A stretch of DNA of 64,000 bases. Source: an uncultured Planctomycetia bacterium. Its GTDB lineage: Bacteria > Omnitrophota > Gorgyraeia > Tantalellales > Tantalellaceae. The stretch is from assembly GCA_964482475.1 (NCBI GenBank), contig CAYZXR010000001.1, positions 37,997 to 101,996 on the forward strand, in the 5' to 3' direction. Made by a program: the position numbers and the translations under genes. The notes below the pieces were generated by a model. The model did no database searches, was not told the DNA's origin, and saw only the letters and a list, made by a program, of their open reading frames with translations. This document shows positions 1 through 64,000 of the stretch, piece after piece (position 1 is the stretch's first letter; every line of letters starts with the position of its first letter).

Positions 1-3000
1 GATCCGGCGGCACCATATTCAAAATAATCGCTGTTCTGATTCATGATTTCTTCAAAGAAATCCATTTCTATAGAGGCAACTTCAAAAACATCATCCCGAA
101 GAGCATCAAAAGAACCACCGTTTTCCATGCCTCTGGCAACTAAACCATCTTCCCTGTCCATAACCTTTCCATCTTGATAATCATACAATATCGAGGACAA
201 ACTTTCTTCTTTTTCAGCGTTTCTGGTATGAACTTGTTGTTTGAAAGTATCCGTCTCCGAGGAAAGCATGCTCAAAATATCGAAATTATAATAATCGTAG
301 TGCTCAACTCCTTTGTAGAAATTATCTTCATTAATTTTAAGGTTTTCTATATCGTAAAGTACATCTCTAACAGAGCGCAAGAAAGTAGTGGTAGCACCCT
401 CAACCCCTATCACAAGATAGGTGCTATCATCGAGAATGTCGTCAGCAGCCTCTCCTGCGTTGCTAACGTTATATGTTTGTACAATTGTTCCTTTTTTATC
501 AAGAGTAACTGTCAACTCATCAAACGTTAGTGGAGCAAAAATAGTATAATTCTGATTATCAAGCAAATAAGGTACAGTTTCTTCATTGGTTCTATCCATA
601 AGCAGACTTGATTTATCTTCTATTTCCTGGCATTTTTTAGCAAACGATCCTGTTTGTTCCTCATATCTATCCTCACCAACAACATAGTATTTATAGCTCT
701 CTCCCTCATAATCATCAACTTCAGTAGAATCCGTAACATTTTCTTTGTATTGGTAATCTCCGAAATTTTCTCCCGTTATTGAGCAAACCAATTCCTCAAT
801 TGTTCTTTCATAGCTTGTCTCATCTCTTTCCAATGCATCTCCGGCAATCTCCTCGAGTATACGTCGACCAACTTCCGCATACATAAGATCTTTATCATGC
901 GCATACGGCAAAAAGCTTAATGTTTCTTTTACCCCATAGGGCAACATATCCTCATTGATATCCGTACTTGCCATTATCGCATCATAGTTGTTATATCCAC
1001 CACACCACCAATCAGGAGAAAGATCATAATCCCAAGTACCCGCTGTAAGCATTTGTAATATTTTCATAACAGCATTTGAGTACTCATAATTCAATTCATC
1101 AAGCCTACTCTGCACAGTAGCGTCCGTGAAAAGAATGCCCACATCCGGACTCATTCTATAATTATTAAGCCATATCCATTTTTTGTGGAACTCATTACCA
1201 ACCTGCACCAATGCTTTAGTTGCCGCGTCAACAACCGACTTTCCCAATTCCTGAGCTATCGTTGTAGACAAGAGTTTGGTCTGACTATTTTCAATGATCG
1301 CATCGGCAAAATCCATCCGCTCAGAAAGATCAGTCTCATCATCAGCATATGTCTTGCTTGAAGGCACCCAGGAGTATTCATCAAACAATGTCTTCCTCTT
1401 CTGAGAAATACCGGAAACTTGTTTAATAAGGTCTTCAACTTTTGCTTGGTATTCTTTCACAGCTTCATCAGCTTTGTTTTGATAGACCTGATATGCCTGA
1501 CTTTCCTTTACCGCAAAATTAGAAAATTTCATATAAATACCGGAAGGAGCGTCCTTATGACTCAACTCTATAGTTGCCAATTCCGTGCTAATATCGGAAA
1601 CTTCACCAGTAACTTCCCAACCAAAAATAGCAGACTCATATTTGAGAGATGCTTCTCTAAATAACTTGTCAAACTCATTTAACAATTTTGTAAGTTCAAT
1701 ACCATTGACCATCTGTCGTCTTTCTTCTTCACTCAGATAAGGTGTAGTCAACGTTATTAAACCATGATATTTTTCTTCATCCTCATCTACGATCCCATCT
1801 CCGGAGAAATCAAATAATATTTCATCAGTCATATCAACGTTACCAAGCAAAAACTCAACCAGATACTGCCTCGTCGCGTCTCGGTAGTCCTCAATGTCCC
1901 TGATAAGAGCCCTGTATTCACCTTGCGAAATCTGGTTGTTTACCCTGTCAAGAGTAGCTTGATTCAATTTGTCAGCAACATCTTTTTCTAGAATTTCATA
2001 CATTTCTCCAAGTTTTTTACCACCGGCACCTATTTCCGCGGCATAATCCCTAAAAAAGCTTTCTTCTTCAACATCCAAAGTGGTTCTATCCATCTCATCA
2101 GCATAAATATAATTTTGTTCTTTGTACTCATCATCGTAAAATTTACCTTGCTGAACTAACGCTACCGGCACCAGAACGTCTTCATCCCATTCAACTTTAC
2201 CTGTCAACGCTATCTGGCCATCATACGGACCAATATTTTTTCTAACAATGGAATGTGTGACATACGCATCCGGGTTGCTACCCGTATAGTTAGCATTAGT
2301 CTCATTTTTGATAATCACATCACCCCAAGATATTATATCTCCTTCAACCACCTGAACATTACTTACCGCGAACGAATTAAGACCATTACGCGCTTCATAA
2401 CGTATTTCTGTTGGAATTATATTCCATTCTCCATCCGCATCCAGGTCATATACTTCTGTCTGATATAACTTATATTGCGTTATATCATCGTCAAGCGTAT
2501 CTGCATCCAACTCTTCATAGCCATATATGTCTATATACCACGCTCTTACAACTTGCTTCTGCGAACTTGTATAGTCTAATATTTCCTGCTTCGCAGGACG
2601 GTAATATTCCTGATCAAAATTCGCGAATTCAACATTAAGCACGGCCACCTGTTCAGAATAATCTTTCTGAGCCTGCTCCCTTATTAAAGAGTCACGCAAT
2701 ATAACTGCCTGACGCAAAACCTCACTGCCAGAAGAACTATTTAATTCCGAAATAATATCCTGGCGCCAATCCTCAAGTGTCATCTCCACATCCTGCGTTC
2801 CATCAATATTTTCATAAGGGATATTGTAATCGTTATGATACTGAACAATCCTCTTCCCTTGAGCGGATATTGTTCCATTTCCATCGATATCCGCGTCATT
2901 AGAATTAATCACACCATCACCATTTATATCAACTTTTGGAATCACGGTACCAGAAACTTCGTCATATTTGGAGCTCAAATGTGTTGTTGTTGGGCTATAC

Positions 3001-6000
3001 TGAACAATATCTCCTTTCACTTCCTCAAGAAGATCATCTATATTAAAACTACTTTTCACCCCTTGATACTGTACAACAAACGCTTTCGCTGTCTGCTGAT
3101 ATTGGAACATAGCCATTGATATCAATTGTGCCATATGATTTGAATAAGCTGTAAAAAAGTCGGCCGTTGCAGGTATATTATCATTCTTTTCTGTCACATC
3201 GCTTGTCCACTTTCTGCTCACATTTTCAACATCTACCGCTTTTAATGCCGCATCCATTTCTAATATCTCTATCGCATACTCGTCCATATATCCCAGGATA
3301 GGCGCTTCATAATTTTCAACGCTTCCCATCGACTGGCCGGTTGCGGGATCGTAACCCGGATCATCTATGACCGTTTTAAGCATAGCAACCAGTCCGTTAC
3401 TAATAGATTCGGCCTTCGCCAAAGCAACCAACGTGAACGGATCCGCGTCATCGCCCAAATCAAGAATCCCTTTATCCCAAAGGTTTGATATGTAGTCAAA
3501 ATAATCATTACCGGTAGAATATTCCCCGACAACAAGCTCACCAACATCATTAAACTCACCGGAGCCGGATATTACTTTGTACCCTGACGGAGCATTAGGA
3601 TCCTTCGCAATCGTTATATCTCCGAAATCGTCAGGTAACTTATATTCGATTTCATCACTAAACAGAAACAAAAGTTCTAATTCTTTATGAAATGTATCTA
3701 TCGCTAAGTTTGTTAAGGTCACATCAATATTAAGCACAAGATCGTCTACGGCCTTATCATAGTAATCCAAGTGACCCGGCTGATAGAACTCCCCCTTATC
3801 TTTCGATTCAAGCCATTTTGCAATAACCGTATCTCTTGTATCCTCGAACTCAGTCCCTATCTGTATGCCGATTTGATCCTCGGATACGATTTGATCAGCT
3901 TCCATCGCTATCCATGGATCCAGGGCATCCGTCCATACATCAACCGGGGAACCATCTTTTGTAACAGTAAGATAATATTTATCGCCCTCCATCTCTATGC
4001 TCGCGGAATACCCTGAAGTCATCACTTGACTTGATATTGCCGGATTCTGGTTACTAATACTTGTCCATGCTGTTGAATCAAGCTTCACTTCACCTGCTGT
4101 AACTATTTCATTTAGATCTTTATCATAAGCGTATAACGTATAGCTTCCGCCTTTTTGAGTCGGATCAGATCCCACTAGACTTTGTTTTCTTACCCCGGAG
4201 TTTTCAGCAGTATTACTCATACTCTGCGCGGCCTGCTGCTTACGCTGTATCATAACGTATTTATAGTCGCTTCTTGCTTTCTCAATGTATTCAACTTCAT
4301 CAACAACTTTACCACCTACTGTCGTCGAACTATCCTCTGTTATTAATTCCAATAGACTGCTGCTTGTTGATGTCGGCTCATCATCCATAATAGTGTCAAA
4401 GACTTCATCTTTTTTCTTGTTGTACTCTGTAATAGCTCTGGCTATCTTATAAATAGCACTATCGTTTAAAATGCCTCCAGTAATAGTTCCCAAAGTCTGG
4501 TTGTTCTTGTCAAGTTCGTCATAAACATGTTCATACCCGGCTACCGATCCCAAAACACCTTCCATATACCCCTTTACAGTTGAATCAGTTTCATAGGTGT
4601 CATTGTGTAATTCCTCGAAACCATCGGTAAACAATATATTTTTTCTGTCTCCTTCTCCAGCTTCGTCATATTGATCATTATTATTCGAATCTACATACCA
4701 TTCACCATCGTCCCATTCGCCGTTATTATTCCTATCCGTATATTGTTCGCCATTGTCTCCTCCCAACCATTTTAAAAATTCTTCCGTAAACGAAGCTGAT
4801 GTCTGTATCGATACCCCATCTTCGTTAATGAAAACAATATCACCTGATTGACTGACTTCAATACGCTTAAGATTTTTAACTTTCACAGTCTGTTCGGTCC
4901 ATTCCGGATCACCATTACTGTCCCAAACAAAGTTTCCTTCCTCGTCACGCTCCTGAATTTGAAACGTTATCTCTTCAGCTTCACTAAAAATGCGTCCAAG
5001 ATAATCCATAAAATCGATAATATCTTCTGTCAGATTGTTCGCCGCGCTATCGTTTCCTATATACCAAACAATAAGTTCGATCCAGTCTTTAAATTCATTT
5101 CTACTTGTACTTGCATTGTAGTCAGTAGACAAAACGTTTCCATCTGAACCGTATTGAACACCAATATCTATCGTTGTTCTCTTCGACCACCAATCGAACA
5201 TCGGTTTTAAAACTTGTATTCCGTCCCCCGGATTCAAAAGATTAGAATTCCCATACTGGTTAGTATCATATATATCCACGGCTGTATTCGCACCCGCCAG
5301 AGTTCCAGAGCTAGCCGGAGCCATCCAATTCAAAGCATTGGGGTTTAGATAAATGCCTCCATCCGGCTCGTAACCAGGGGCCCATCCTTCATTAGTAAAT
5401 TCCCAGTCATATGTCAGTTCGGTAACACCTTTTTCTGTCACTCTGTAATAGTTATCCAGTTCGAAAACGACCTGGCTTATAGCTGCATCTATCTCATCAT
5501 CCCGTTCATCTTTCGCGGTTTCAAGCTTTGTCTGGTATTCGTTTAACCTGTCCTGTATTTCCTTCATTCTCTGTTCCAGAGGAACTTCCTCACGCGTTAC
5601 AGTCTCACTATTACCATCTTCGTCAATAACTGTTTTTGTACCACCCTCAAGTTCAAAAAGACGCTGATCCCTCAGTTCTGCCCACATCGACTCTCTATCA
5701 GAAACAATATTACCATTCGAATCCAAGCTAACTGAATCTGAAGCTCTATCATTAAACTCGACAAGAGTAACCTTTTTATCGCCTGAATCAAATCTGTATT
5801 TAAGGGTCATCCCAACATAACTTTTACTGGCACTTCCTTCAGTCCCTCTGTAAATATAAACCATATAATCTGTACATCCCGCGGGAGTGTTAACTGTCTG
5901 GGTTAATTTTTCACATTTAAACTCATAGTTTCCGAAATCATCCGGTATAAGCGCCTGACCATATTCTTCGTTATATCCAGACGTATCGGTTGATCTTTCG

Positions 6001-9000
6001 TCATAATCATCCTCATCTGTTGAATATTGCTTTTTCCATACATTCTTAATCGCTCCGGTTTCTTCATCAATATCAAGCGAGAACGAAGGATTATCTCCAT
6101 CACTTACGACCCACGCCTCAGTTTCAGAATCTTTTTCCCACACGGTTCCCGGATCCGAATCAGGATCGGATTTTTCCAACCACACCGCGGGCACCAGTGG
6201 AGTCCCCTCATTGTCAGTCTTTCTGGCCCAATAAGATGTTCTCCATGCTTTCCATGAAACAACGTCATCGCCGATATATTCCTTAACAATTGTTCTTTCT
6301 TCAGTCAAATGTTTGATCTCGTCATCTGTCAATCGGTCTCCGGAATCAACCAGATCATCGTTAAATGCTTTAATGTTTTCAGGAACAACTTTTTCACTAT
6401 AAGTCTCTATCATGTATATCGCCTGGCCATCTGAGGTTAGATACTCGGAAAAGTCCGCCAAAGTCTTAACCTCGCCTGAACTCGCGTCATAATAAGCTAC
6501 TTTATTCCCGTCCATATCATAATAATCATACAAATGATCCACCTTTACGCGATGCATCTCTATCTTGCCAGAAGCGTCTCTGACAATCTCGCCTGATTCG
6601 CCATACATACTATTCCCATACTCTTCAAATCTAACTTTTATACCATCTTCATTCAATGTCGTAACACTTCCATTAGGACTAGTAACGTATGTTTCTTTTA
6701 TTTTGTCATCCACTGTCCTATCAATTATTTTCCCTCCTGAGAACCCATTTAAACGCTCCCACGCCTTTGCGGCTCTTGCTGCTGCTACTGCTTTTTCTGC
6801 TACTACTACCGCGGCTGCTGCTAATCTTGCTGCTACTGCTCCTGCGGCTGCGGCTACTGCTGCTGCTGCTTCTGCTGCTTCTGCTGCTTCTGCTGCTGCT
6901 TCTGCTGATATGTCTCCTGTTATTCCCGCTGTTGCTGCTTCTTCTGCTACTGTTGCTGCTGCTTCTGCTACTGTTGCTGCTTCTTCTGCTGCTGCTACTG
7001 CTTCTGCAACTTCTGCTGCTGCTGCTACAACGGCGGTTACTGCTGTTGTTGCTGCTGCTGTCGCTGCTGTTGTTGCTGCTGTTGCTGCTGTTGCTGCTAT
7101 TGCCGTTGCTAATGCTACTGCTTCTTCTGCTGCCTCTGCGACGGTAGCTGCTGCTTCTGCAACGGTAGCTGCTGCTTCTTCTGCGGTAGCAGCATAAGCG
7201 GCTGCTTCTCTTGCCGCTACCGCTGCTGCTTCTACTGCTGCTTCTTCTTCTACTGCTTCTGCGGCTGCTGCTTCTTCTGCTGCTGCTTCTGCGGCTGCTG
7301 CTTCTTCTTCTTCTTCTGCTGCTGCGGCTGCTACTTCTGCTGCTGCTGCGGCTGCTACTTCTGCTGCTGCTGCGGCTAATACTGCGGCTGCTGCTGCAAC
7401 TGCTGGACCACAAACAATAAGATTACCATCTAAATCAAAGCTAACTGAATTATCGTTATGTCCTAAAGGAATGACTTCTCCCTCTCTACTATCGTTTTTA
7501 TATCTGTATTTCTCTGACACAAGTAGCTGAGCTGGCACACTTGATGTTTCCTTTGTAAAAATGTAAAGTTCAAAATCCCTAAAATCCTCTATCGAATCAT
7601 GTTCCATAAGCATACATACAAAATCATATTCTTCGTAATCCTCATAGTATTCTTCATATTCTTCATCATATTCCTGATTTTGAGAGGGCGTAATGTCCAC
7701 TACCTCTCCATATACATCAAAATGAATATCCACTAACGGTATATGCCTCTCAGTATCCACAATCCTTCCTTCTAGTTTCAGCCACGATGATTCGGTAAAA
7801 TCTTTCCACGCGCTTCCAGGTAATGGACTATCATCCAATATATCAGATGTATAGGGTGTATCATCAGCCTTTTCAACCCATTCCCTATCACCATTCGTAT
7901 CGGGTATTTCGGCCTGAACCCAATAAGATGTCCTCCATGTTTCCCATGAAACGACTTTTCCTAGCCGATATTCCTTTATGATTTCCCTCGTTTTTGACAA
8001 ATGCTTAATATCATTATCTGTCAACGGATCCTTACCAACACTAACCAACTCCTCATTAAGTGCTTTAATATCTTCAGAAAAAACCGTCTCAGTATAGGTC
8101 TCTTCCATATGCAGTGCCGAACCATCCAATGCCATATAATCTTCATACTCTACATCCACCAACGTTTTAACTTCACCTGAAACCGTATCGTAATAAGAAA
8201 CTTTATTTCCATCCGCATCATAATAATCATAAGCATGAATGGCTTTTACCCTATACATCTCAATCTCTCCGGAAGAATCCCTCGTAATGTTCCCTGCATC
8301 ATCATAAATGCTGTCTCTGTATTCTTCCACTCTAACTCTTACCCCATCTTCGTTGAATGTCTCAACACTGTCTGGACCAAAGTCTAATACTTCCTTTAGT
8401 TTTACATCCAAAGGAAGAAGCCGATCGACAAGACCATACCCAACTTTATAATCACCATTGTTATCGTAACCATCAATGTCGTAACCATCAATGTCGTAAC
8501 CATCAGGATCGTAACCATCAATGTCGTAACCATTAGGATCGTAACCATCGATGTCGTAACCATCAGGATCGTAACCATCAATGTCGTAACCATTGGAATC
8601 GTAACCATCAGGATCGTAACCATTAGGATCGTAACCATCAATGTCGTAACCGTTAGTATTGTAACCACTAGTGTCGTAACCATTGTTATCGTAACCACTA
8701 ATGTCGTAACCATTGTTATCGTAACCATCAATGTCGTAACCACCGATACCGTAACCATTGATATCATAACCATTGACGTCATAACCATTGATATCATAAC
8801 CATTAGCGTCATAACCATTGGCGTCATAATCAGATGTTCCATCCGAGCTACCAATGTCTTTCAATTTATAACTGTATTTATTTACGACACCATACTTATC
8901 AATAACTTTGAGTTTGACACCCTCTTCATTCATAAAAACAGTAGTACCTTCGCTATTAGCCGTATTCGATTGACTCAAACCATCTTCAGTAATAATGCTC

Positions 9001-54000: not shown

Positions 54001-57000
54001 ACTACCTCAACCGCTCCCAGTAAACGATCATTATCCACATATATTTGAGCGAATGCCAGATCGGCATCATCAATTATCCCGTTACCGTTTATATCAGATT
54101 TCTCAATTTCATTCACACTTATCGTATGCATCGCATCAACAATATCGCGTATATATGCCATATCAGCAAAGTCTGCCTCCGTGTCACCATCAAGATCTTT
54201 GTAATATTCCAGACTTTTACTTAACGCGGTGAAATCCCTGTAATCAATAAAACCATCCGCGTTTATATCCGCTGATTCAATTAATTCTTTTGACGCTATA
54301 ATATCCTGCAAACGCGCAAGATCTTTCGCGTCAACGACCGAGTCCCTTGTAAGATCATAATAAATGGAATATTCTCCATCACCAGCGGCTTCTGTACCCT
54401 CGAGCCATAATTCAACATCCATATCAGTGATTTGCCCATCTTTGTCCATATCAGCAGTACTAACCAGACTTTCAGCCGTTATAATGTTTTCGATCATCCT
54501 GCCATCACTGATTGACAAAACTCCGTCACCATCAACATCAAATCTATCAAGTGGCGGACTTGTAATATAGATTTCATCTACATCTATTCCTGAGATATTG
54601 AACCCTCTATCAAGTTCGAATTCGACTTCATGTGTTCCGGGGTCTATCCCCTCAAGCTCTATGGAAATAGCTTTCCTGGCCATAATTCCTTGCGTATTTG
54701 GAACTATTATTGTGCCATACTCCTCTCCATCCACCTTCACGGTAAACAGCGCGACTTCTTTCTCCCCGTTCATAACTTCAAGACCAATAATATATTTTCC
54801 ATCCTTTTCCATGTTCACAACTTTTGTCATTGAATAACTGGCCCCATCCATCTCATAACGGTCCGTAGTCGGACTATAAGAATTCCACTCATCGCTATCT
54901 TGCCAATCTATAACACCATCTGAATTAATATCGGATTTCTGCAAACTATCATAGGACAAATAGTATTGAGGTAAATCTATCTTAACAAACTTCTTATCCG
55001 CGATTGTTGCATTCATGATCTCTTCAATAATTTGCACGTCATCTTCATCGATGAGGCCATTACCGTCTATATCTACATGGTTCTTAATGGCCTCTCCAAG
55101 TAAGAATTCATCCGCATAATTCACAATGCCATCACTATTAAGATCAGCTGCCATCAATCCCGCTTTAGTAATCCCAAGGTTATTTACAGCGTTTGTTACA
55201 AACCTTTCGATCTCATCAAACGCTTCGACATCTGCATAAGTAACGCTATTGTCCTGGTCAAAATCTGTGGTGCCGTAAAATGCTCCTTCAAGAACCGCTA
55301 TTTCATTCGGGTCCATAACTCTATCCCGATCATAATCTAACATCCCGAAAATTCTATCTTTTATAGACGAGGTCAGGATTGCGTTTTCCAGAAACTCACG
55401 ATCTTTTTCATCGCTTGTCCCGTCTCCATTAAGATCTAAAGCTACAACACCATCCGACTGTATTCTGAAAAACTCTTCCATATCACCGGCATCTACATGA
55501 CCTGTATTATCCACATCAGCTTCATTCATGACGCTATTCCGGGTCATAACAGCAAGTATCAGATCTAGATCCAGTGCGCTAACAATACCATCTTTGTTGA
55601 TATCTTTCTCAAATCCCGGATCGCTGAATGCTTCGATATCGTCTTCATCAACTTTGCCATCACCATCGAGGTCACTTCTAGCCTCATATATTAGTTGTTC
55701 TACCAGAGTTTTCATACTATCCGCGCTAACGTATTGACCTGAAAGATTGAAATACTTGTCTGACAATACCAGGTTGTCCTCATCAAGCTCCACATTATAC
55801 ACATAATTGCCTATCCGCAGATCCCCATATGCCGTGCTTGCAACTGAACCCTCTGATGAAGTCAGAGTAAATGTTCCATCGCTGTTATCCACTATTCCGT
55901 AATCAACACCCTGAATCCTTATGGTTGTCATTCCAGCAGAGGCAACAAACCTATATTCTCTGGTAAACGTCGTTTGTCCTGATACTTCGTCATAAACCAC
56001 TTTAAATACTTTGCTGTCTATCTTCACTTCACCATCTTGTATCGCATAAGTTCTGTCACCGGCAGAAATACTCATGCCGTTTGATGCTATAGTAAAGTTT
56101 TCGCCGTTCAACGTCACTAAACTGCCAACGGAAATTATTTCAACTCTGTCTGCCGCGCCCAAATCCAGATCATAGTAATTCTCCATATTGCTTACCAATG
56201 CCAACCTATCAGCGGCGTCAATTATCCCGTCTCCTGTAAGATCCGCGTTTTTCAGCATTTCCACATCAACTACTTCCGCGGCATATATGGCTCGATACAC
56301 TTCATAAGCTTCCTGGGCTTTATCTGATATCTCCCTTAATTCTTTTAAAGCCTGGACTATTTCAACGTCTTTTACGTTTAAGTCATGTTCATCAAGCCTT
56401 CCGTCGCCATCAAGATCATACAAGTTGAACAGTTCTAATGAATCTTCCATAGCCTGCACATCGGCGCCATCAACCACACTGTCGTTGTTGGAATTTACAA
56501 CGTAGTATTGTCCAAAAAGCGCTATGAGCTGACCATCAGCAACCTGACTTTCTATCTGCCTTGTTAGTTCTATTTCACGTCCGGTGAGAATTATCGAATA
56601 AATGTCTTCACCTATCTGAATCGCACCTTGTTCACTTGAATAGCTATCCGTGAAGGTTGACAAAACAAATTCGTCACCATTAACATCCACCGTGAAGTCC
56701 TCACCGTTAATAGTCAACACTCCGTTACGAGAAATAAGAGTTAAAGAAGATGGATCCTCAACTATCTCTTTTAAGAAAACAATATTACTTACATTATCAA
56801 CACTTATCTCATAAACTCTTCCACCCAACTCGATTGTTTCTCTTGAAGAATCTGTTTGGTATCTATCAAATCCATCAGCAAAAATATAAACACCTTTGAT
56901 ATTGTCATAAGTAACAGTGTATACTTTACCGCCTACGGTAATTGCCGGTTCTTTGCGCCTGCTAGTAAATGATTTTTCAATTATCAAGTCACCCGAAGGT

Positions 57001-60000
57001 CTTTCTGTAAGATTATATGTATACCTACCTATCCTGGCCACATCACCTTCGTCCCCATAATAAACTCGCGGATATGCTGTCTTTCTCTCGGTAAATATAA
57101 ATCTACCATCTTCAGCCTTGCTAATAGCGTAATCGACTCCGTCTATTTCTACCCGATTATTTTCGGAGAAAACACGGCTTCTTTCTTCAATGGTAAAAAT
57201 ACCGTTTTCGTCTTTTGACGCATCAAAAAGGATGTTACCGATCAACAATACATGCTCGCCGTTACTATTTATATAACTATTGACAACATCCCCTGCCGCT
57301 GTCTTCAGGGAATATGTCTCCGCACCTCTTTGAGTTAATGCATATTCCACTCCTTTTATCTCTATCCTGTTACCTTCAGCCTTTTGAACATTCGGCTCGG
57401 TAAGCGCAAGGAATCCCGAATCTTGATCCACATCAATGTTATACAAATAACCATCGCTTAACCTTACCGTCTGACAAACAAAATCACTTTCAAACTCATT
57501 TTGATCATCGCTGAATACATACGTACCTCTGTTGTAATCAAACTCAACTGTATACTCTTTTCCATATACCAAGATTGACGGCAAGCTTGACACCATGCTA
57601 CTTTTCGCATGTACTTGATCGAGAGCAACCTTGTCAGTTAATGGATATTTTGAAACATTAAATGATTTCCCTTCCAAAAATACTATATTCCCCTGAAATA
57701 GACTTGATGCAACTATCTTCCCATCATCAAAAAGACATGTGCCATCTTCTAGTGTTTCTACAACATAAATTTTCCCATCCAACAGAACCGCTTCTTCGTC
57801 AAGCACCGAGGCTTCGCTAACAGTCTCATAAAGCGAAATGTTCCCATCTGTATCCTGCAAGACATTGTATTTTATTCCAGAAACTTCGATCGTGTTCCCA
57901 TCAGATGAACTGGTAGCAATTACAGAGTTACCAACCTTCAGTGTTCGAATGCCTTCCTGCGACTCAACAACATCATATACAAGACTTCCGATCTGCAACC
58001 TTTGAAGCGCGACATTTTCAATATTATCCGAAGTTAGTATGCTAGCGGAAGCCACACTAACCATAGGTTCAACCATTGATAAGCTAAGAATACCCTCACT
58101 CACAAAAGCCTGATACTTTAATCCTTCAAGATCGGCAAGATCACCCTGCGCAAGTGTGAATTCCTCGATCCCTCTCGCGACTGTAAAGCTTCCATCTTCA
58201 TTGCTTGCAACTTCGTACTCTCCTCCAGCCAGGCTAATAACCTGATCAGCTACATGCTCACTTGTGTAAACTATTCCCATAGCCTCCGGAACAACAGCAA
58301 GCAGAACAACATCACCAGTAGCGTCATTTGTAGTCACAACATATTTTCTCTCCAAGAAACTCACAACTTCTCTCGCCTGATCATCTATTTCACAAGAAAT
58401 GATTTTAGCCCCATCATCAAAGTTATGTGTTCCATCCGTATTTTTTGTTACCTGTAACTTCAGTGACGGAGTTGTCTCGCCTTGGTATCTTTGTACTAGT
58501 ATTATCACTTCATCCGCAAGAACTGACGATGTTACCGGCTGCACAATCAACGAGATATCCCCTGTAACTTCATCGGCAATACCTATATCATAGCTAATAC
58601 CCTCTATGACTATTTTTCCGCCCAAATCATCACTAAGATACCCACTCAATCCGTTGCTTAAGACATATCTTCCTTCGGTGTCTGTACTAACAGTATAATT
58701 CATACCGTCGATTGAAAGTACTTGGCTAGCAACCTGATATAGATCACCTGATCCACCCTGCAAAGTGATCTCATTATTAGCTACATCAACTACAATATCA
58801 TAGACAACATCTTCTAATTCTATCTTATCTGTAGCAGCATTAGAATAGATCACATTCCCTTGATGTTCAAAGGCATATGTCTTAGCTCTATCGTTATACG
58901 TAACCGCGTATGTCCTACTTCCTACTCTGATGACCTGATCCGCCAGAATTGAGCTAACCTCAGGAACTTTTACGACAAAAAGCTCCGATGTTATCCCATC
59001 CCTGCTAACAACATATTCCGCACCATTAATGTTAATAAAGTTCTCACCCGATTGAGCCGAGAATTGATCTTCGCCGTTATATAACATATATCCTTGAGTC
59101 CCGGCATCATAAGAAATTGTATAGAAGCTGCCCTCGATCTTCACGACATCGTCAGTAACAGGCAACCCCGTCAAATGCTTTTCTATCAAGTTTACTTCAC
59201 CTGTTACATTGTCCACTTCGACACTGAATTCACTTCCGTTAATAACTACTGATCTTTCTTCACCTTGTGCGTCATAACTATTCACACCGTCTGCTATGCT
59301 ATAGGTTTCGTCAAATGTTATGTCTGATTTCCTTCTCTCATTCGGACTAACTGCCAAAGCGATATACTCTATTATGTCGTCCATACGAGACAAGTCTTCT
59401 TCATCGATACGATTGTCGCCTGTAAGATCAGCTACACTTAACGCGTTAAGGAAATAGTCCCTATCAGATAATCCGCTGGCGATGTTATAATCCAGCTTAC
59501 CGTTATTGTTGTAATCCATTTCATATCTATAGGTAGTGCTATATCCGGATGTTTCTTTAACCTGATTCATAAGCTTTTTACTGACATAGTAATAAGCTAC
59601 ATCTTTTACACGTTCGACATCTGAGAAATCCACCTGGTTAACCGGTTCTAATTCCCCCTGTCCGTTATCGTATTCATTAATGAAACTGTATATTTCATCA
59701 AGATCAGCATTATCAACGATCCCGTCACCATTAATATCCGCCAATACGTCATACTGGCCGATATAGTTTTCCACATAAACAATATCATCCTCTCCGACTA
59801 CATCAAGCCCAAACATGCTGTATTTATCTATTTTAGCCTCTAGCGCATCTACGTCGTCCAGCCAAATAACCCCATCCCCATTAACATCTACCGTCGCCAG
59901 ATTAAATTCGGTCTTATTAACAAAAACTTCGCGGACTTGCACACTATGATCAATGCCAATATTCGTAAACTTGAATTCAATATCATGTTCCCCTTTACTC

Positions 60001-63000
60001 AAGTCCAACCTAACACTTCCTTCAACATATTTGGCGTCATTGCTTCCGTCTAATTTAATCGTGTTTCTATACATCCCGTCTATATAAACCTCTACTTCAT
60101 ATCGGAACCCGAGAGGAAGATCAGCCCCTGAATATTTGCGTGCTGAAATACCTACATAATAACTTGCGGAATTTTCAATATCATACGCATAAGTTAAAAC
60201 GGCATCTTTGGTTGAAGAATACATACTGTCGTATTCAGCGGTGAATTGGGCTAAAGTCTGTACGCTGGACGCATCCTTTCTCCCCTCTAAAATGCTACCT
60301 TCCGGCCAAAGTGGGTCATCAACTTTACTCCCCGGCCATATCAACTCATAGGCTTTCTCAACAAACTCTACGTCTACTTCGTTCACTAATCCTTCATCGA
60401 CCTGACCATCATCACTTAAGTCATTTAAATTATAATTATCATAGTTCCTATAACTGTTCATGATTATCGCATAGTCTTCTTGATCTACCAGGCCATTACC
60501 ATTCAGATCGGCATCTTTAAATGTCTCTTGCAAATTCCAGTCATATTCATCAAAAACTCCGTCGCCATTTCTATCTCCAAAAGCACCTGTTTCGACCAGG
60601 TTATCGTAATAGGCGATAATCCCCTGCATCTTGTACATGTTCTCGAGCCACGCAGCATCCGTGTCATCGATAACACCGTCCGCGTTCAGATCATACAAAT
60701 ACACCAATGAATCCAGAGCTTCCTGCAACTCTTCGATATCTTCCGTATCAATGTAACCGTTGTTCCTATAACCTTCTTCATCGTCCCACTTACTGTTTTC
60801 TCGCAAATCAAACTCAATAGCTTTATTCTGAAGGTAATTATCTCTTGAGATCACAACCACTTGAGCCAGAGCCTCTTCATCAGAATACTCAACGCCATCT
60901 ATCTCAACATGAAAAGTCATGTCGTGATACAAAAGCGTGTCTCTCATAGTCTGGACATCCTTCGCGTTCACTATGCCATTTTCATCATGATCGGCTCGAT
61001 TTACCAATACCTGCTTATCAATATTCGTCTGTATAACTTCCGCGTCAGACACGTTAATATATCCATCGCCATCAACATCCACCATACTGGTTTGTTTTAT
61101 TGTTATCTGACCATCGCCGATACTGTAAACCTTAAATAGGTTTTCACCTATCTCTATCAGGTCAGAACCTTCAATGCTCACATAAACATCTTCATTATCT
61201 GCTTTGTTAACAAAAGTCCAGGTGTCATCCTCAAAAGTTATATCAAATTGTCCCACAAGAGCAATCTCGATCACGCCTTCCGCGCTTGTATACTCTTTCG
61301 GCTGTTTAAAAATTCGTATACCTTTAGTAATAGTGTCCTGTTCTACTTCGTATGTAATACCATCAATAACAACTTCATTTGATATTACTTCCACAGTAAC
61401 CCCGTTATCGCCTAACAAGGTCCATGTTTCATCTCCATGAGCTGTTACGTTATAACTAACTCCTTCAAGCTCTATGATCTGGTTATAAACTGTCTCACTG
61501 CCATCAGGACGAACACTTAGGAAAATGTGATTTGAATCCGCGCTAAGCTTGTTTATGGTATACGTTGTATTATTAATTCCAACTTCCTTGCCACCATCAA
61601 CAGAGACAATTCCGTCTCCAAAAATATATTCACTACCGTTAAATGTAATGTCATATACAACATCCTGTAGCTCTATTGCCATCCCTTCGGTTTCAACACT
61701 CGAAGATGGAGGAAGGGCGAGCGAGATATCACCTGTTATGATATCTCTATCAACATTATATTGAACACCTGCCAGTGTTATCGAGTCCGTCGCGCCTTCA
61801 GCTACTAAAGACCCGGAAACCAAATCGGTAAAACTGTAAACTCCTGTTGCGGTTTCGGAGACATTATAAACAACCCCAAGCTCGCCGCCTACTCTGATCT
61901 GGCTGTTACCCAAGACTTCTGTCGCACCGGAAATGTCTCTATCCATATTGATAACGCCGGCAGTTTCACTGATAACATATGGCTTATTACCCAAAATAAC
62001 GTTATTGCCAATACTGTTGATCTGGGCTATATTGCCTAAAATATCCGTAAAAATATAATTTTCACCCTCTTTTGTGACGGTATAAACAATATCCTCAAAC
62101 TCTACTTGATTTGCCAACTCTTGTGAGCTGACCACTTTTTCAGCTATCAATGTAATGCTGTCCTCTACCGGATAATCTTCTACCACGCGATAAGATACCT
62201 GTCCCAGAACAACATCTCCGTCCGAGCTTAACACGTCCTCCGCAGTGTCAAAAAGATTAACAAATCTGTATTCGTCACCAACAACTGATATTTCGTAAAC
62301 ACTTCCCGCTACCTTCATAATATTTTGAGACACAGCCATACTCGTTTGCCCCATCTCTGTAAGCACAAGGCCATCCTGTTTCTCTGTTACTAGATATCGA
62401 CTGTCATTTATGGATACTTCACTATTCACGTCAGTTTGCGTGGAATTATTTTCATTTGTTGTTTCGGTAAATGTGAAAATGCCTGATTTTTTTGAAATTG
62501 AGTATACTTTGTCTCCGATAGAAATTAGATATCCAGGAATCTCAAAACCCCGTGATAATTTTTCCTTAAGAACAATATTGCCTTGAGGGTCAACTACCTG
62601 AATATCGTAAATAACATCATCTATAGAAACGGTACCTGTATTAACATCGCTATCATATGTAACCTGACTATCGGCGGTAGATTCAAATGTATAAATTCCA
62701 TCCTGCAAATTTACCGTGTACAACACATCGTTTAAATACATTGAGTTGGATTCTTCCGGTAAATCGGATACAATATTAGCTTTTTCGGCGATAGAAATGT
62801 TATTTTGATCGTCTTTAACAACGTTATAAGTTCTGCCATCAAATACAAATTGATTTTCGCTAACCGCTATCTTATCAAAAGAGTCCTCTATGCTTGTTAA
62901 CTCAAACTCTCCGTCACCCACCTGTCTTATATCGTATATCGTACCATTAAAATTCACCATCGGACGCTCTCTTTCCACTCCGACTTTAAACATCGGGGTG

Positions 63001-64000
63001 AAAATCATCTCGCTGTCTGAATAGGTAAGTCTATATTCGTTCGATCCGATAATAACCTCAGATCCGGAATTCGTCGTATCAATAAGAACTGCTGCGTTAA
63101 ATACATCTACCAGCTTATATTCTGATCCATTTTGAAGAACATCATATACTTTGTCGCCGGCAAAAATGAATTGTTTATCATCATCAACACTATCGCTTAT
63201 CATCGCTATTTTCGTTAAAGTTATTTGTCCAAAAGAGGGATAATCTTCTGTTATGCTATATTTGCGGCCATCTATGTAAACTTCATTTCTCGCCTCGTTA
63301 CTGTTCCATATATCAGCCCCATCCTGAACATTAACAAATTGATACTTCCCGTCAACTACACTAAACTCATACAAAGAAACCTCATCGCTGGATCCAACAA
63401 TGCTTACATTGCCACTTTCACTAACAATTCGCTCTTTAGCATATATGTCCCTGTCTGCCTGATCGATCACACCATTAATATCTAGATCGGCCCGTATGTC
63501 GTAGACCTGATCTTCTATAACTAAGTTGCCCAACAAACAATTCGTTCCTTCTTTCCACCTTATACGTATTGTATGATCACCGGATGCCAGCTCCTGCCCC
63601 ATTAACTGGCCTATATTAAACCGTCTTGCGTCTTCAACAATTGAGAATTCTCCAACCGGCTCATCCATGCTATCAATGAAAACTTCAAAAATATGGATGC
63701 CATACTCATTCCCCTGACCTCTTGTTTCAAAACCTATGTCATATAAGCCCTGACCGTCAAGATTAACCTGGTAATCAATGTAATAATCCGTGTCATTATC
63801 GTATGTGGCGCTGATCGATAGATTATCCCCAGATCCAACCACGGTAAACCCCTGAATATTCGTATTTTGATCTACACCTACAACCACAGGGCCAACTGAC
63901 CCAAACGCGTCATTTATTATCTGATCATCTAACATATCTATAGAGTTACTACCGTCTAAGTCTGAAAAAGCGTCCTCACTAATAGTTACAATACCAGCAC
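1..64000 (-). CDS. Internal part of a single giant multidomain protein gene, partial at both ends (no start or stop in the window). Likely a secreted or cell-surface calcium-binding fibre, adhesin or scaffold protein.
   Basis: Hand translation of the minus strand at about 25 sampled points is stop-free and protein-like in one constant frame. Examples with 3'-end coordinates: 1–59 gives FFEEIMNQNSDYFEYGAAG; 841–899 gives HDKDLMYAEVGRRILEEIAG; 17,400–17,459 gives DLINEVFTLENADLAEQVAR; 25,317 gives LQESIGSLTSYDINTDGMVD; 63,900–63,998 gives AGIVTISEDAFSDLDGSNSIDMLDDQIINDAFG. The ORF track has no ORF in this frame, 13 short ORFs in one alternate minus frame and 1 in the other, and only ORFs of 210 aa or less on the + strand. 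Confidence 0.85.
2880..2940 (-). other. Isolated dockerin-like calcium-binding loop.
   Basis: Verified translation: PKVDINGDGVINSNDADIDG. Confidence 0.55.
4680..4760 (-). other. Thrombospondin-type-3-like aspartate-rich calcium-binding motif, copy 1. It is homologous to the copy at 15,960–16,090.
   Basis: Verified translation: TDRNNNGEWDDGEWYVDSNN. Compare T-D-T-N-S-N-G-Q-W-D-V-G-E-D-Y-V-D-S-N-N in copy 2. Confidence 0.55.
5750..6720 (-). other. Module A, about 320 aa. YD-repeat-containing domain, paralogue of module B, lying immediately C-terminal to the Ala/Glu linker.
   Basis: Verified at 6,481–6,540: DHLYDYYDMDGNKVAYYDAS, two consecutive Y-D-x-x-G-N motifs typical of Rhs/YD repeats. Nucleotide co-linearity with module B. 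Confidence 0.6.
6780..7400 (-). repeat. Ala/Glu-rich low-complexity linker of about 200 aa with imperfect GCN/GAA repeats. Probably a rigid helical or extended spacer.
   Basis: Verified translation of 7,200–7,260: EAVEEEAAVEAAAAVAAREAA. Verified at 7,380–7,400: AVAAAAA. The antisense strand carries (gct/gca)n, giving the spurious poly-Ala and poly-Leu + strand ORFs at 6,565–7,197 and 6,689–7,147 and the Ser/Arg-rich minus off-frame ORF at 6,721–7,413. Confidence 0.8.
7440..8410 (-). other. Module B, about 320 aa. A YD-repeat-containing (Rhs-type YD motif) domain followed by an acidic Tyr-rich stretch at about 7,590–7,680. It is a paralogue of module A.
   Basis: Nucleotide co-linearity with 5,750–6,720 at a constant offset of 1,691 nt, for example 'ccaataagatgt[ct]c tccatg[ct]tt[tc]ccatgaaac' at 7,919 and 6,228. 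Verified translation of 7,590–7,680: QEYDEEYEEYYEDYEE. The C-terminal end reads SFDLDGNLIVCGPAV, verified at 7,401–7,439. Confidence 0.6.
8440..8860 (-). repeat. Tandem array of a 15-nt, in-frame pentapeptide repeat D-G-Y-D-x, about 27 copies. The fifth position varies (I/P/S/N/A/V/T).
   Basis: Antisense repeat 'gtaaccatcaatgtc' with slight variants. Verified translation of 8,460–8,520: DGYDPDGYDIDGYDIDGYDN. The track ORF at 8,402–8,854 (MVTIL...) is the off-frame reading of the same repeat. Confidence 0.8.
8860..10450 (-). other. Beta-rich region between the helical region and the pentapeptide array. Part of it is probably a third, diverged copy of the YD-type module.
   Basis: Antisense similarity of 8,880–8,990 to module A and module B ('...ttcattcataaaaacagtagtaccttcgctatt' versus '...ttcattcaatgtcgtaacacttccattagg'). 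At 10,441–10,500 the frame reads QSKALNCSGIISGMTESDIL. Confidence 0.35.
15960..16090 (-). other. Thrombospondin-type-3-like aspartate-rich calcium-binding motif, copy 2.
   Basis: Verified at 16,021–16,080: PESYTDTNSNGQWDVGEDYV. Downstream the protein continues with D-S-N-N-D-G and more Asp-rich residues. Confidence 0.5.
19560..19900 (-). other. Dockerin-like pair of calcium-binding loops inserted in the helical region.
   Basis: Antisense 'atacatcagacgcgttaacaataccgtcatcgtttacatc' reads DVNDDGIVNASDV. Antisense 'gtactattgacaacaccatcattatttatatccac' reads VDINNDGVVNST. Confidence 0.55.
20640..21600 (-). other. Papain-like cysteine peptidase domain resembling peptidase family C39 (the bacteriocin-processing, double-glycine peptidase fold), embedded in the helical region.
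   Basis: Verified translation: ...TGGITTIASWLTNQGLQIINCASYVLGDYFNVDADKEEML... with Gln-x(3–6)-Cys, the Cys at about 20,937. About 87 aa further C-terminal: ...VKNNGRDHFVSIENIDDGEVAYESNGYSYVMTVDNFEQI..., with the His at about 20,676. This matches the C39 layout of Q...C, about 70–90 aa, then H-F-V-[VI], then a D/N-rich strand and an ...F..I. tail. Confidence 0.45.
25100..29760 (-). repeat. Dockerin-like calcium-binding repeat array A, about 1,500 aa. Short beta-hairpin repeats are interspersed in its lower-coordinate third, about 27,300–28,700.
   Basis: Verified loops: 25,261–25,320 gives YDINTDGMVD; 27,001–27,060 gives YSKADINSDGVVDETDWTS; 27,181–27,300 gives PDINEDGVIDDLDAVALSQ; 29,641–29,760 gives KKADLNKDGILNKNDIELFEEISGNYKDVNGD. 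Interspersed beta repeat, verified at 27,301–27,420: YDGVLDVQGVEYSYKMNDDGTCTFIDADGNLYISDTETG. Confidence 0.65.
29760..32750 (-). other. Beta-rich block between dockerin-like array A and the triplicated module.
   Basis: Composition and periodicity as in the other beta blocks. No calcium-loop motifs were seen. This region was not translated. Confidence 0.35.
32750..35200 (-). repeat. Three tandem copies of an 804–810 nt (about 268 aa) beta-sandwich-like module. Copies 2 and 3 are about 85–90% identical at the nucleotide level and copy 1 is more diverged.
   Basis: Direct nucleotide comparison: 33,433 'tggaacatatctaggtctgcttcattaac...' matches 34,237 'tggaacatatctaggtctgcttcattgac...'. The antisense ORFs in the track at 33,382–33,627 and 34,225–34,422 are near-identical. 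A more diverged copy lies at about 32,900. Verified protein fragments from the copy at 33,590–34,395: KSDLNNDSVVNEADLDMFHMQYMDTSALEKV and SEYDEVTISFDYYFLDSWDG. Confidence 0.7.
35200..49650 (-). repeat. Long beta-repeat block of about 4,800 aa made of short periodic units roughly 35–60 aa long. The recurring signature is hydrophobic-x-G-x-x-Y ... DDGT-x-x-F-x-D-x-D-G-N-x-Y ... T-G-x-[IV]-x-L-[VIE]. It contains near-identical 180-nt tandem units at about 36,480–36,900.
   Basis: Verified translation of 36,480–36,780: TYVFIGETKYQIEKVAATGEVILAEAPILSTVNDTQAVKVGNKVYDIAEDGGELGFTNGDVSYTSVNASEVVIEGTKYLIDQVAETGEVILAEAPVISTI, with the repeat unit visible twice. 38,401–38,460 gives FYSVTVDEDDSEHRYKIND. 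Confidence 0.5.
49650..56450 (-). repeat. Dockerin-like calcium-binding repeat array B, about 2,200 aa. This is the largest array in the window.
   Basis: Verified loops at both borders and inside the array. 49,681–49,740 gives INKDGKVSEGDLDSVKQTMD. About 52,000 gives ADRDGDGEIS. About 53,400 gives TIGRADINGDG. 56,221–56,280 gives LKNADLTGDGII. About 56,400 gives FNLYDLDGDG. Confidence 0.65.
56450..59300 (-). other. Beta-rich repeat block between dockerin-like arrays B and C.
   Basis: Composition and periodicity match the beta-repeat block at 35,200–49,650 (Y/D/T/V/I/G/N-rich, roughly 35–60 aa periodic units). No D-x-D-x-D-G loops were seen. This region was not translated. Confidence 0.4.
59300..61100 (-). 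repeat. Dockerin-like (EF-hand-type, Ca-binding) repeat array C, about 600 aa.
   Basis: Verified loops: 59,401–59,460 gives SVADLTGDNRIDE; 61,021–61,080 gives DVDGDGYINVSDAEVIQTNI. Between them are many antisense 'gtcaccatt/atcaccgtt...gatatc' units, which read as D-x-N-x-D-G on the minus strand. Confidence 0.6.
61100..64000 (-). other. Beta-rich repeat block (N-terminal-most part visible), with at least one isolated dockerin-like calcium-binding loop at about 63,900–63,960.
   Basis: Verified translation contains SDLDGSNSIDMLDD. The surrounding sequence is rich in Y/D/T/V/I/N/G, with the periodic short repeats typical of beta-strand modules. Confidence 0.5.

Follow-up and report, generated by a model that had tools for sequence, protein, structure and literature searches.

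The closest described counterparts of the gene reported here are the very long proteins of Candidatus Omnitrophota. The gene fills, in a single minus-strand reading frame, the whole of the 64,000-nucleotide stretch of contig CAYZXR010000001.1 that we analyzed (the window), and its product combines a calcium-binding dockerin array, a beta-hairpin repeat, and a C39 peptidase. Proteins of at least 10,000 amino acids (aa) are termed 'large' and those of at least 30,000 aa 'giant', and a survey counts 3,650 of the former size or above, 348 of the latter, and a maximum of 147,155 aa (Nielsen & Lui 2026, bioRxiv 10.64898/2026.06.07.730766). Such products, tens of thousands of residues long, strain the limits of transcription, translation, folding, and export, and those of Omnitrophota are believed to serve the bacteria in attaching to other cells and feeding on them. 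The class that matters most here, 'Dockerin-type' (West-Roberts et al. 2023, bioRxiv 10.1101/2023.11.21.568195) or 'class 3, dockerin-bearing' (Nielsen & Lui 2026), comprises single open reading frames (ORFs) of tens of thousands of codons with many dockerin/EF-hand repeats (up to 15 copies of dockerin), TSP3 and discoidin repeats, DUF1080, ILEI, and GNAT domains, long repetitive antiparallel-beta regions, a C39 domain toward the C-terminal side, C-terminal transmembrane anchors, and a SecA-like domain. The Archaeovorins of Velamenicoccus archaeovorus and its relatives, from the same phylum, are likewise giant single ORFs with predicted antiparallel-beta filament regions and with C39 and/or S8 peptidase domains that are proposed to cut the polyprotein; they have numerous transmembrane regions and no dockerins. 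For these giant proteins, C39 and S8 domains have been proposed as the cutting enzymes, with the cleavage points stated to be unknown (West-Roberts et al. 2023).

Three further systems are useful for comparison. The C39 domains of AMS/PCAT proteins (LahT, PCAT1, ComA; PDB 6MPZ, 4RY2, 3K8U) are fused to ABC transporters and act on a leader at the N-terminus of a separate small peptide, the consensus for C39 leader peptidases being Leu(-12)-X3-Glu(-8)-Leu(-7) with a hydrophobic position -4 and cleavage after Gly-Gly, Gly-Ala, or Gly-Ser (PMC6363468). StbD-CT, the C39 toxin of a CdiA-like protein of Citrobacter rodentium (PDB 8SSK), is a C-terminal domain of a very large, exported protein; it cleaves topoisomerases, and its auto-processing in cis, at a diglycine site in the adjacent linker N-terminal to the peptidase, has been shown experimentally (bioRxiv 10.64898/2026.05.07.723447). 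The giant adhesin-like proteins of Chlorobium chlorochromatii (36,805 aa and ~25,000 aa) are built from haemagglutinin, fibronectin, and RTX-type repeats, and a role in adhesion has been proposed for them in a bacterium that lives attached to another cell.

Six-frame translation of the window gave no stop among 21,332 codons in one minus-strand frame (codons with their highest + strand coordinate ≡2 mod 3 and their lowest ≡0 mod 3), as expected from the initial annotation, which had placed the entire 64 kb inside one ORF that runs past both edges. The remaining five frames contain 685, 944, 1,226, 1,461, and 2,781 stops, and the longest open stretch in any of them is 233 codons. Taking 3.2% stops, the frequency in whichever other frame has the fewest, an open run of 21,332 codons has a chance of ~1e-302, and from base composition alone the figure is ~1e-703. 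Codon-position composition is constant along the window, with G at position 1 ranging from 0.39 to 0.48 and the guanine-plus-cytosine (GC) content of position 2 from 0.30 to 0.39 per 1,500-codon block; the overall GC content is 40.75%. The observed giant frame is a genuine protein-coding gene, and it is open at both ends, with at least 21,332 codons. Two irregularities that had been met when reading the sequence by eye, an apparent frameshift at 27,181-27,240 and an off-by-one frame at 38,401-38,460, had both been put down to copying, and rightly: the consensus frame is the sole open one in each place, and both read there as ordinary dockerin and hairpin-module sequence. It had also been remarked that the program-made ORF list has no entry in the open frame, and this is so because ORFs that run off both ends are omitted from the list; both minus-strand ORFs that it does contain (starts 7413 and 8854) are in other frames. 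The window coordinates of fragment residue i are (63999-3i)..(64001-3i).

The principal features of the fragment are the following.

1..64000 (codons 3..63998), minus strand: internal fragment of one ORF, aa 1-21332 numbered from the high-coordinate end, with start and stop codons outside the window.
27303..63281, minus strand: beta-rich region with 72-aa two-hairpin modules, aa 240-12232, delimited by an iterative hidden Markov model (HMM) built within the window.
49680..55682, minus strand: main dockerin type I/EF-hand-like block of 26 modules, aa 2773-4773 (Dockerin_1, E 1.9e-80 in 10 stretches; EF-hand_7, E 2.7e-26).
25239..29756, minus strand: second dockerin-rich region, 18 modules interleaved with hairpins, aa 11415-12920 (Dockerin_1, E 4.5e-62 in 7 stretches).
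20544..21128, minus strand: peptidase C39 domain, aa 14291-14485 (Pfam PF03412).
20496..20531, minus strand: double-glycine-leader-like motif LSDAELKAYDAA, aa 14490-14501, which begins 49 residues past the catalytic His.
19530..19946, minus strand: three more dockerin-like modules just past the peptidase, aa 14685-14823 (in-window HMM).

The visible 21,332 aa pass the threshold for a large protein and fall below that for a giant one, both ends of the gene lying outside the window. The rank first given to the gene, among the largest prokaryotic coding sequences known, does not stand against a survey in which 3,650 proteins reach 10,000 aa and the longest has 147,155 aa, while the accompanying guess that such genes occur in candidate-phylum lineages agrees with its nearest relatives, which are Candidatus Omnitrophota proteins. 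In architecture, the fragment is a divergent new protein of the published Dockerin-type (class 3, dockerin-bearing) class. It shares with these proteins the very long single ORF, the many dockerin/EF-hand repeats, the long repetitive antiparallel-beta regions, the lack of transmembrane helices over the N-terminal part (here by hydropathy scan), the position of the C39 domain, large stretches without a family match, and relatives in metagenome-assembled genomes (MAGs) of Omnitrophota. It differs from them in having ~62 dockerin modules by the in-window HMM (18 stretches by Pfam), in that TSP3, discoidin, DUF1080, ILEI, and GNAT are undetected in the fragment, and in being at most ~40% identical to any public relative found; the transmembrane anchors and SecA-like domain of the class are not in the 6,800 aa that follow the C39 domain, and the ORF runs on. 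Archaeovorin identity was rejected, since the fragment has dockerins and lacks convincing transmembrane segments. The Chlorobium proteins resemble it as very long repetitive ORFs, but no sequence relationship to them was found. As a whole, we consider it probable that the window is an internal piece of one very long minus-strand gene for an exported, calcium-stiffened surface fiber with a self-processing C39 domain, borne by a member of Omnitrophota; the parts of this reading differ in strength and are graded below.

The peptidase domain belongs to family C39 by profile, catalytic residues, and predicted fold, and it lies downstream of all the large dockerin/hairpin arrays. The PF03412 match reaches 32.1 bits, where the gathering score is 22 (E 1.1e-7; aa 14395-14481, spanning positions 43-129 of a 133-position profile). 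Peptidase_C39 and Dockerin_1 were thus found among the four Pfam families named in the initial annotation, and the other two, RHS_repeat and TSP_3, have no match at E<=0.01. The catalytic-site residues are Gln14347, Cys14354 (codon 20937-20939, in INCASYV), and His14441 (codon 20676-20678, in DHFVSI). Among 72 aligned relatives, the catalytic Cys is present in 64 (with Ser in 6) and the His in 71, and all three residues are invariant in a 13-sequence alignment of the closest relatives; the third triad position (His+16), which LahT fills with Asp, is Ser/Asn here. Modeled by AlphaFold2 with 23 aligned sequences, aa 14291-14540 have a predicted local distance difference test (pLDDT) score of 82.4 and a predicted template modeling (pTM) score of 0.79. 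The top Foldseek matches of the model are all C39 domains (6MPZ, 7N87, 8SSK, 6V9Z, 3ZUA, and 3K8U; probability 1.00, TMt up to 0.69), and by name they include LahT150 with bound leader (6MPZ), PCAT1, StbD (8SSK), and ComA, these four with TMt 0.64-0.69, and the C39-like domain of HlyB. The domain thus has the family, the Gln/Cys/His residues, and the predicted fold of the AMS/PCAT peptidases; unlike them, it sits 14,000 aa deep within a giant protein and is not fused to an ABC transporter. Identity as a PCAT transporter was rejected.

Of the leader consensus, the motif LSDAELKAYDAA that follows the peptidase has Leu(-12), Glu(-8), and Leu(-7), with an aromatic side chain at -4 and Ala-Ala at -2/-1. 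The corresponding segment of relatives reads L[ST]D.EL..[VIL].G[SAG], as in LTDAELMEVTG/S (P0001), LTDEELMILAG/S (P0005), MSDAELIDAKG/S (P0004), and LSDAEMMNIRG/A (P0024); a leader-like motif was noticed also in P0012 and several others, and MGD2278957.1 and MFC1643912.1 are among the relatives with Gly-Ser. A strict form of the pattern is found 44 to 61 residues (mostly 48 to 51) after the catalytic His in 23 of the 61 relatives with enough downstream sequence, against ~0.027 matches expected per such interval in the same proteins. In a scan of the fragment with a position-specific scoring matrix, LSDAELKAYDAA is the best-scoring site and no other rises above shuffled controls, which lends no support to a series of C39 cleavage sites spread over the protein. 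AlphaFold2 renders the motif as a short helix and then a strand, with pLDDT values of ~93-96, and confidence falls below 50 directly after it, the pattern to be expected if the segment is docked on the domain and leads into a flexible linker. The double-glycine motif is not mentioned in the giant-gene papers of West-Roberts et al. and Nielsen & Lui. It corresponds in its Leu(-12)-X3-Glu(-8)-Leu(-7)-X2-hydrophobic(-4) layout to the leaders cut by AMS/PCAT peptidases and differs from them in lying on the same chain, C-terminal to the peptidase, and in ending in Ala-Ala. StbD-CT offers the nearer parallel, as a C39 domain within a very large protein. There the chain is cut in cis at a site N-terminal to the peptidase, whereas the fragment has a candidate site only, which is C-terminal to the domain and is followed by at least 6,800 aa; in addition, StbD-CT is a C-terminal toxin, and no immunity gene or toxin context is visible in the window.

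Whether the C39 domain cuts its own chain is the part of the interpretation with the strongest competitor. It is quite possible, though somewhat short of an even chance, that the domain does not do so and acts instead in trans (on other secreted proteins, for instance, or on those of a prey or host), as a toxin (Tox-PL-C39, StbD), or as a noncleaving tether of substrates, in which case the leader-like segment would be a mere structural element or an autoinhibitory pseudo-substrate. Several observations fit this alternative and weigh against self-cleavage: position -2 is Ala here, where canonical C39 substrates require Gly, and -2/-1 read Ala-Ala in place of Gly-Gly, Gly-Ala, or Gly-Ser; only 23 of the 61 relatives have the strict motif, leaving 38 without it; no second significant leader-like site occurs in 21,332 aa; and docking of the motif in the active site is a possibility read from the pattern of model confidence. 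C39 domains do act as toxins in polymorphic toxin systems, and West-Roberts et al. leave both options open. The alternative accounts less readily for the fit of the motif to an experimentally defined recognition consensus at -12, -8, -7, and -4, for its fixed spacing from the catalytic His in relatives far beyond the expected frequency, or for its rendering by AlphaFold2 as an ordered part of the domain that gives way to a disordered linker; cis cleavage by a C39 domain also has a precedent in StbD-CT. At the level of the family, we tentatively propose from these sequence patterns that the C39 domain may cleave its own chain at or near the leader-like motif, and we hold this with lower confidence for the Ala-Ala copy in the window, which may instead act as a docked pseudo-substrate.

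The first ~13,000 aa of the fragment are beta rich and carry, interleaved with dockerins, the 72-aa hairpin module, for which the in-window HMM gives 98 hits, with 73 nonoverlapping near-full copies and an estimated total of about 73-90. Its consensus, eTVeigGvtYdIvedegeielve...vieldGevYtvtkngdGtytFsdgeneytSd, contains two 'xVxLxGxxYxV...' units, and the longest tandem runs consist of 8 copies (aa 8796-9352) and 7 copies (aa 11751-12228). The module corresponds to no Pfam family, recurs in 8 Omnitrophota-type relatives in up to 18 copies, and, judged by its sequence, represents a repeat family that lacks annotation. Four modules in succession, modeled by AlphaFold2 from 22 paralogous rows, form an all-beta meander (mean pLDDT 77.6, pTM 0.43). 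The model does not match RHS shells significantly, and among solved structures the module has no convincing homologue. The modules may correspond to the 'antiparallel beta-helix' filaments predicted by West-Roberts et al. for both Omnitrophota classes of giant proteins, although the four that were modeled are too few to show so. A resemblance to YD repeats (G..Y.V....DG.Y.F) is loose, and RHS/YD-repeat identity was rejected given the lack of an RHS_repeat match at E<=0.01 and a model unlike RHS shells.

Of the ~62 dockerin-like modules recognized by the in-window HMM, 50 are near full length. The in-window consensus is DvngDGvvdeeD...aDiNgDGvvddaD, and a strict calcium-loop motif occurs 76 times in the whole fragment compared with 0.8 times in shuffles; the duplicated calcium-binding loop-helix segment scores above threshold for dockerin type I (PF00404), which places the modules in that family, and the EF-hand_7 match likewise exceeds its Pfam cut-off. 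The three modules directly downstream of the peptidase form the second conserved segment matched by many relatives (positions 700-815 of the HMMER query described below), and the second dockerin-rich region is collinear with the relatives P0014 (E 1e-153) and L004 (E 1e-91). Pfam gave no match at E<=0.01 in the 21,332 aa to TSP_3, RTX, cohesin, or discoidin (F5_F8_type_C). Dockerins and hairpins are also combined in a triplicated unit.

32613..35279, minus strand: three tandem ~270-aa composite units, each of dockerin, hairpin, and a ~160-aa beta-rich domain, aa 9574-10462.

The copies of this unit are 48-66% identical in protein and 66-74% in DNA, and the triplication is the most recent duplication in the window. 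Only the Dockerin_1 part of the unit is matched by Pfam. The ~160-aa domain, which ends in ...ESWG[LIM]DN..., is possibly lectin-like or similar to a carbohydrate-binding module.

An exhaustive HMMER protein search with aa 14001-15200 as query found 110 proteins, the best of them with E 6e-63 and 31% identity over ~620 residues; the nearest relatives are ~30-40% identical in the best-conserved domain. Organism names were available for 27 of the 30 relatives looked up among the 110, and 25 of these are Candidatus Omnitrophota (one of them Ca. Gorgyraea atricola), with one Nitrospirota and one Uhrbacteria; the ten best are all Omnitrophota, and no Clostridia protein is among the 30. Most of the relatives looked up are annotated as 'partial' and fill their whole contig, being fragments of other very long genes. 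The most extensive is P0005 (Omnitrophota; 'S8 family serine peptidase, partial'), which is collinear over aa 14221-20748, with segments that include aa 17868-18378 and a short match at aa 20618-20748. P0014 is collinear over aa 11273-14502, and for L004 the collinear stretch is aa 11908-14855. Scanning GTDB species genomes for related loci on the basis of 4 sequences gave 4 loci, all open from end to end in the matching frame over up to 20,657 nt, in three Omnitrophota MAGs and one genome labeled Planctomycetia. The last is L004 (contig CAYPCX010000002.1 of 229,015 bp, range 99988-120644, 'uncultured Planctomycetia'), which has one frame open over all 20,657 nt and in it, as in the window protein, a dockerin/hairpin array followed by a C39 domain, plus an unannotated part; it is probably another very long gene, and possibly either mislabeled or an example from outside Omnitrophota in the Planctomycetota-Verrucomicrobiota-Chlamydiota (PVC) group. 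A word-indexed search of 5.8 billion protein clusters with aa 14001-15000, aa 19333-21332, and P0001 returned nothing beyond the self-match of P0001, probably because acidic, low-complexity, and dockerin 5-mers saturate its list of 8,000 candidates, and the lack of a match there is not evidence of absence. Exact 42- to 45-mers from the two ends of the window had no match in either of the two public collections searched, one of genome and one of metagenome contigs.

With the relatives in hand, the reality and the bearer of the gene can be considered together. Half of the protein residues lie within internal high-scoring segment pairs in a self-BLAST, dockerin-type genes are reported to fragment in assemblies owing to their repeats (West-Roberts et al. 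2023), and the window sequence is in neither contig collection, so one might suppose that repeats were misjoined or collapsed and that the continuous 64 kb frame exists in no real genome. This is very unlikely. The best DNA self-match is 79% over 289 nt, with ~74% over 1.5 kb, and only five 40-mers are present twice; the repeats are old and divergent (<=79% DNA identity), and therefore assemblers should not confuse them. A random misjoin would leave the frame intact in just a third of cases, and domain order would be lost, yet the succession of hairpin/dockerin array, spacer, C39 domain, dockerins, and unannotated region is collinear in three independent assemblies, which in itself makes a repeat-driven chimera unlikely, and composition is uniform along the window. 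Nothing in the sequence, as we read it, points to such a misjoin. It is extremely improbable that the frame is a decaying or untranslated relic, or that only shorter products are expressed from internal starts: ~8,000 aa do lack a family match, but neutral drift would bring stops at about 3-13% per codon, the catalytic residues, calcium-binding loops, and module consensus are all kept, and even the unannotated region retains 23-28% identity to P0005. That the gene is real and belongs to another lineage, either a PVC phylum such as Planctomycetota or a dockerin-rich Firmicute, is improbable, with rather more in its favor. The window contains no phylogenetic marker gene, its best relatives are just 30-40% identical, its GC content of about 41% stands against 51-57% in the related loci, one of those loci carries the Planctomycetia label, single weaker relatives come from Nitrospirota and Uhrbacteria, and both dockerin repeats and proteins of at least 10,000 aa occur also in other PVC phyla and in Clostridia. 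These points count against an assignment to Omnitrophota, for which speak the 25 of 27 organism-named relatives, including all ten best, and the recurrence in Omnitrophota relatives of the C39 domain with its motif and of the hairpin module. From the relatives, the most probable bearer of the gene is a member of Omnitrophota that has no close kin among sequenced bacteria.

The product is strongly acidic (Asp 10.6%, Glu 9.4%); its net charge stays between -8 and -17 per 100 residues along the chain, and it has 37 cysteines in the entire fragment (0.17%). A crude hydropathy scan of the 21,332 aa found no convincing transmembrane segment; only 6 scan windows exceed 1.6, of which 2 are in beta modules, 3 in an Ala-rich low-complexity stretch, and 1 at aa 16516-16534, and, this weak candidate apart, transmembrane anchoring inside the window was rejected. 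From the acidity, the near absence of Cys, the calcium-binding modules, the lack of transmembrane segments, and the analogy with the published class, it is likely that the product is exported and largely extracellular. There the dockerin/EF-hand modules would bind Ca2+ and stiffen or cross-link the long beta-module fiber, and the resulting fiber or scaffold would attach to other cells or their polymers, a proposal to which we give about an even chance. The C39 domain, in the reading we favor, would process its own polyprotein; a cut at the leader-like motif would detach the adhesive N-terminal part from the C-terminal part, which is unannotated. A number of observations tell against this picture of an exported fiber. 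The window shows neither a start nor a stop and is without a signal peptide, membrane anchor, SecA-like domain, or neighboring gene; no cohesin partner is known, and by Pfam no cohesin domain occurs in the window; ~8,000 aa have no assignable function; the assessment of transmembrane segments is a crude hydropathy scan; and the TSP3 and discoidin repeats of the published class are undetected, these being accessory features and not a strict requirement.

The protein class and its size were already known, and what the fragment adds is a highly divergent member with unusually many dockerin modules, ~8,000 unmatched residues, and two possibly new elements, the C39 domain with a leader-like motif in cis and the defined but unannotated hairpin repeat family. 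The positionally conserved motif beside the peptidase offers a specific hypothesis for where giant polyproteins are cut. A broader proposal would make the C39 domain and motif a self-cleaving cassette of large and giant Omnitrophota proteins, the hairpin module a new filament-building repeat family, and the change of Gly to Ala the sign of a slow or noncleaving variant; in this full form we regard it as doubtful. If it is true, the cassette would be the first concrete, sequence-defined cleavage point for Omnitrophota giant polyproteins, Ala at -2 would mark the protein of this gene as one that is cut slowly or not at all, and the 72-aa module, with its 73 or more copies in the fragment and its recurrence in 8 relatives, would build the published 'antiparallel beta-helix' filaments.

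From aa ~13,000 on, composition turns to helix-forming residues, and the remainder of the fragment consists largely of the following.

21249..25001, minus strand: helix-former-rich spacer upstream of the peptidase, aa 13000-14250, delimited by composition.
9099..19451, minus strand: long helix-former-rich region, aa 14850-18300, which includes the weak hydrophobic segment at aa 16516-16534.
8454..8831, minus strand: ~25 pentapeptide repeats GYD[IPNT][DN] (…NGYDIDGYDPNGYDPDGYD…), aa 18390-18515, read directly.
5703..8441, minus strand: duplicated ~340-aa unannotated domain, aa 18520-18861 and 19088-19432, the copies 39-49% identical by self-BLAST.
6759..7421, minus strand: Ala/Glu-rich low-complexity stretch (AAAAVLAAAAAEVAAAAAAE…) between the ~340-aa copies, aa 18860-19080.
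3..5702, minus strand: last part in view, aa 19433-21332, with the frame open at the edge.

The spacer has no notable Pfam match at E<=1 and no internal repeats; aa 14850-18300 have no match in Pfam, NCBIfam, or PDB sequences, nor do aa 19433-21332, which also drew none in the word-indexed protein search. Altogether, ten unannotated segments compared with Pfam at E<=1, and the last 8,332 aa compared with NCBIfam and PDB sequences, gave noise only. The residues without a family match (window 3-19451 and 21249-25001) amount to ~8,000, of which ~6,500 follow the post-peptidase dockerins. P0005 is the single public protein collinear with the unannotated region, and the second ~340-aa copy is partly conserved in it.

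Scans of the window for tRNA genes and Rfam families gave no match. The pentapeptide run is the most DNA-repetitive stretch of the window, with 73-79% identity between shifted copies. The Ala/Glu-rich stretch gives the highest hydropathy scores of the protein and yet is unlike a true transmembrane helix. It is overlapped by + strand ORFs at 6565-7197 and 6689-7147 and by a minus-strand ORF at 6721-7413, and these 150-230-codon ORFs in other frames arise because the DNA of the stretch is GC rich and stop poor; they are by-products and not genes. Finally, the + strand of the window is skewed, with 16,556 C against 9,524 G. This asymmetry is not a replication skew, and results from the G-rich first codon position (GAN, GGN, GTN, GCN) of the minus-strand gene.

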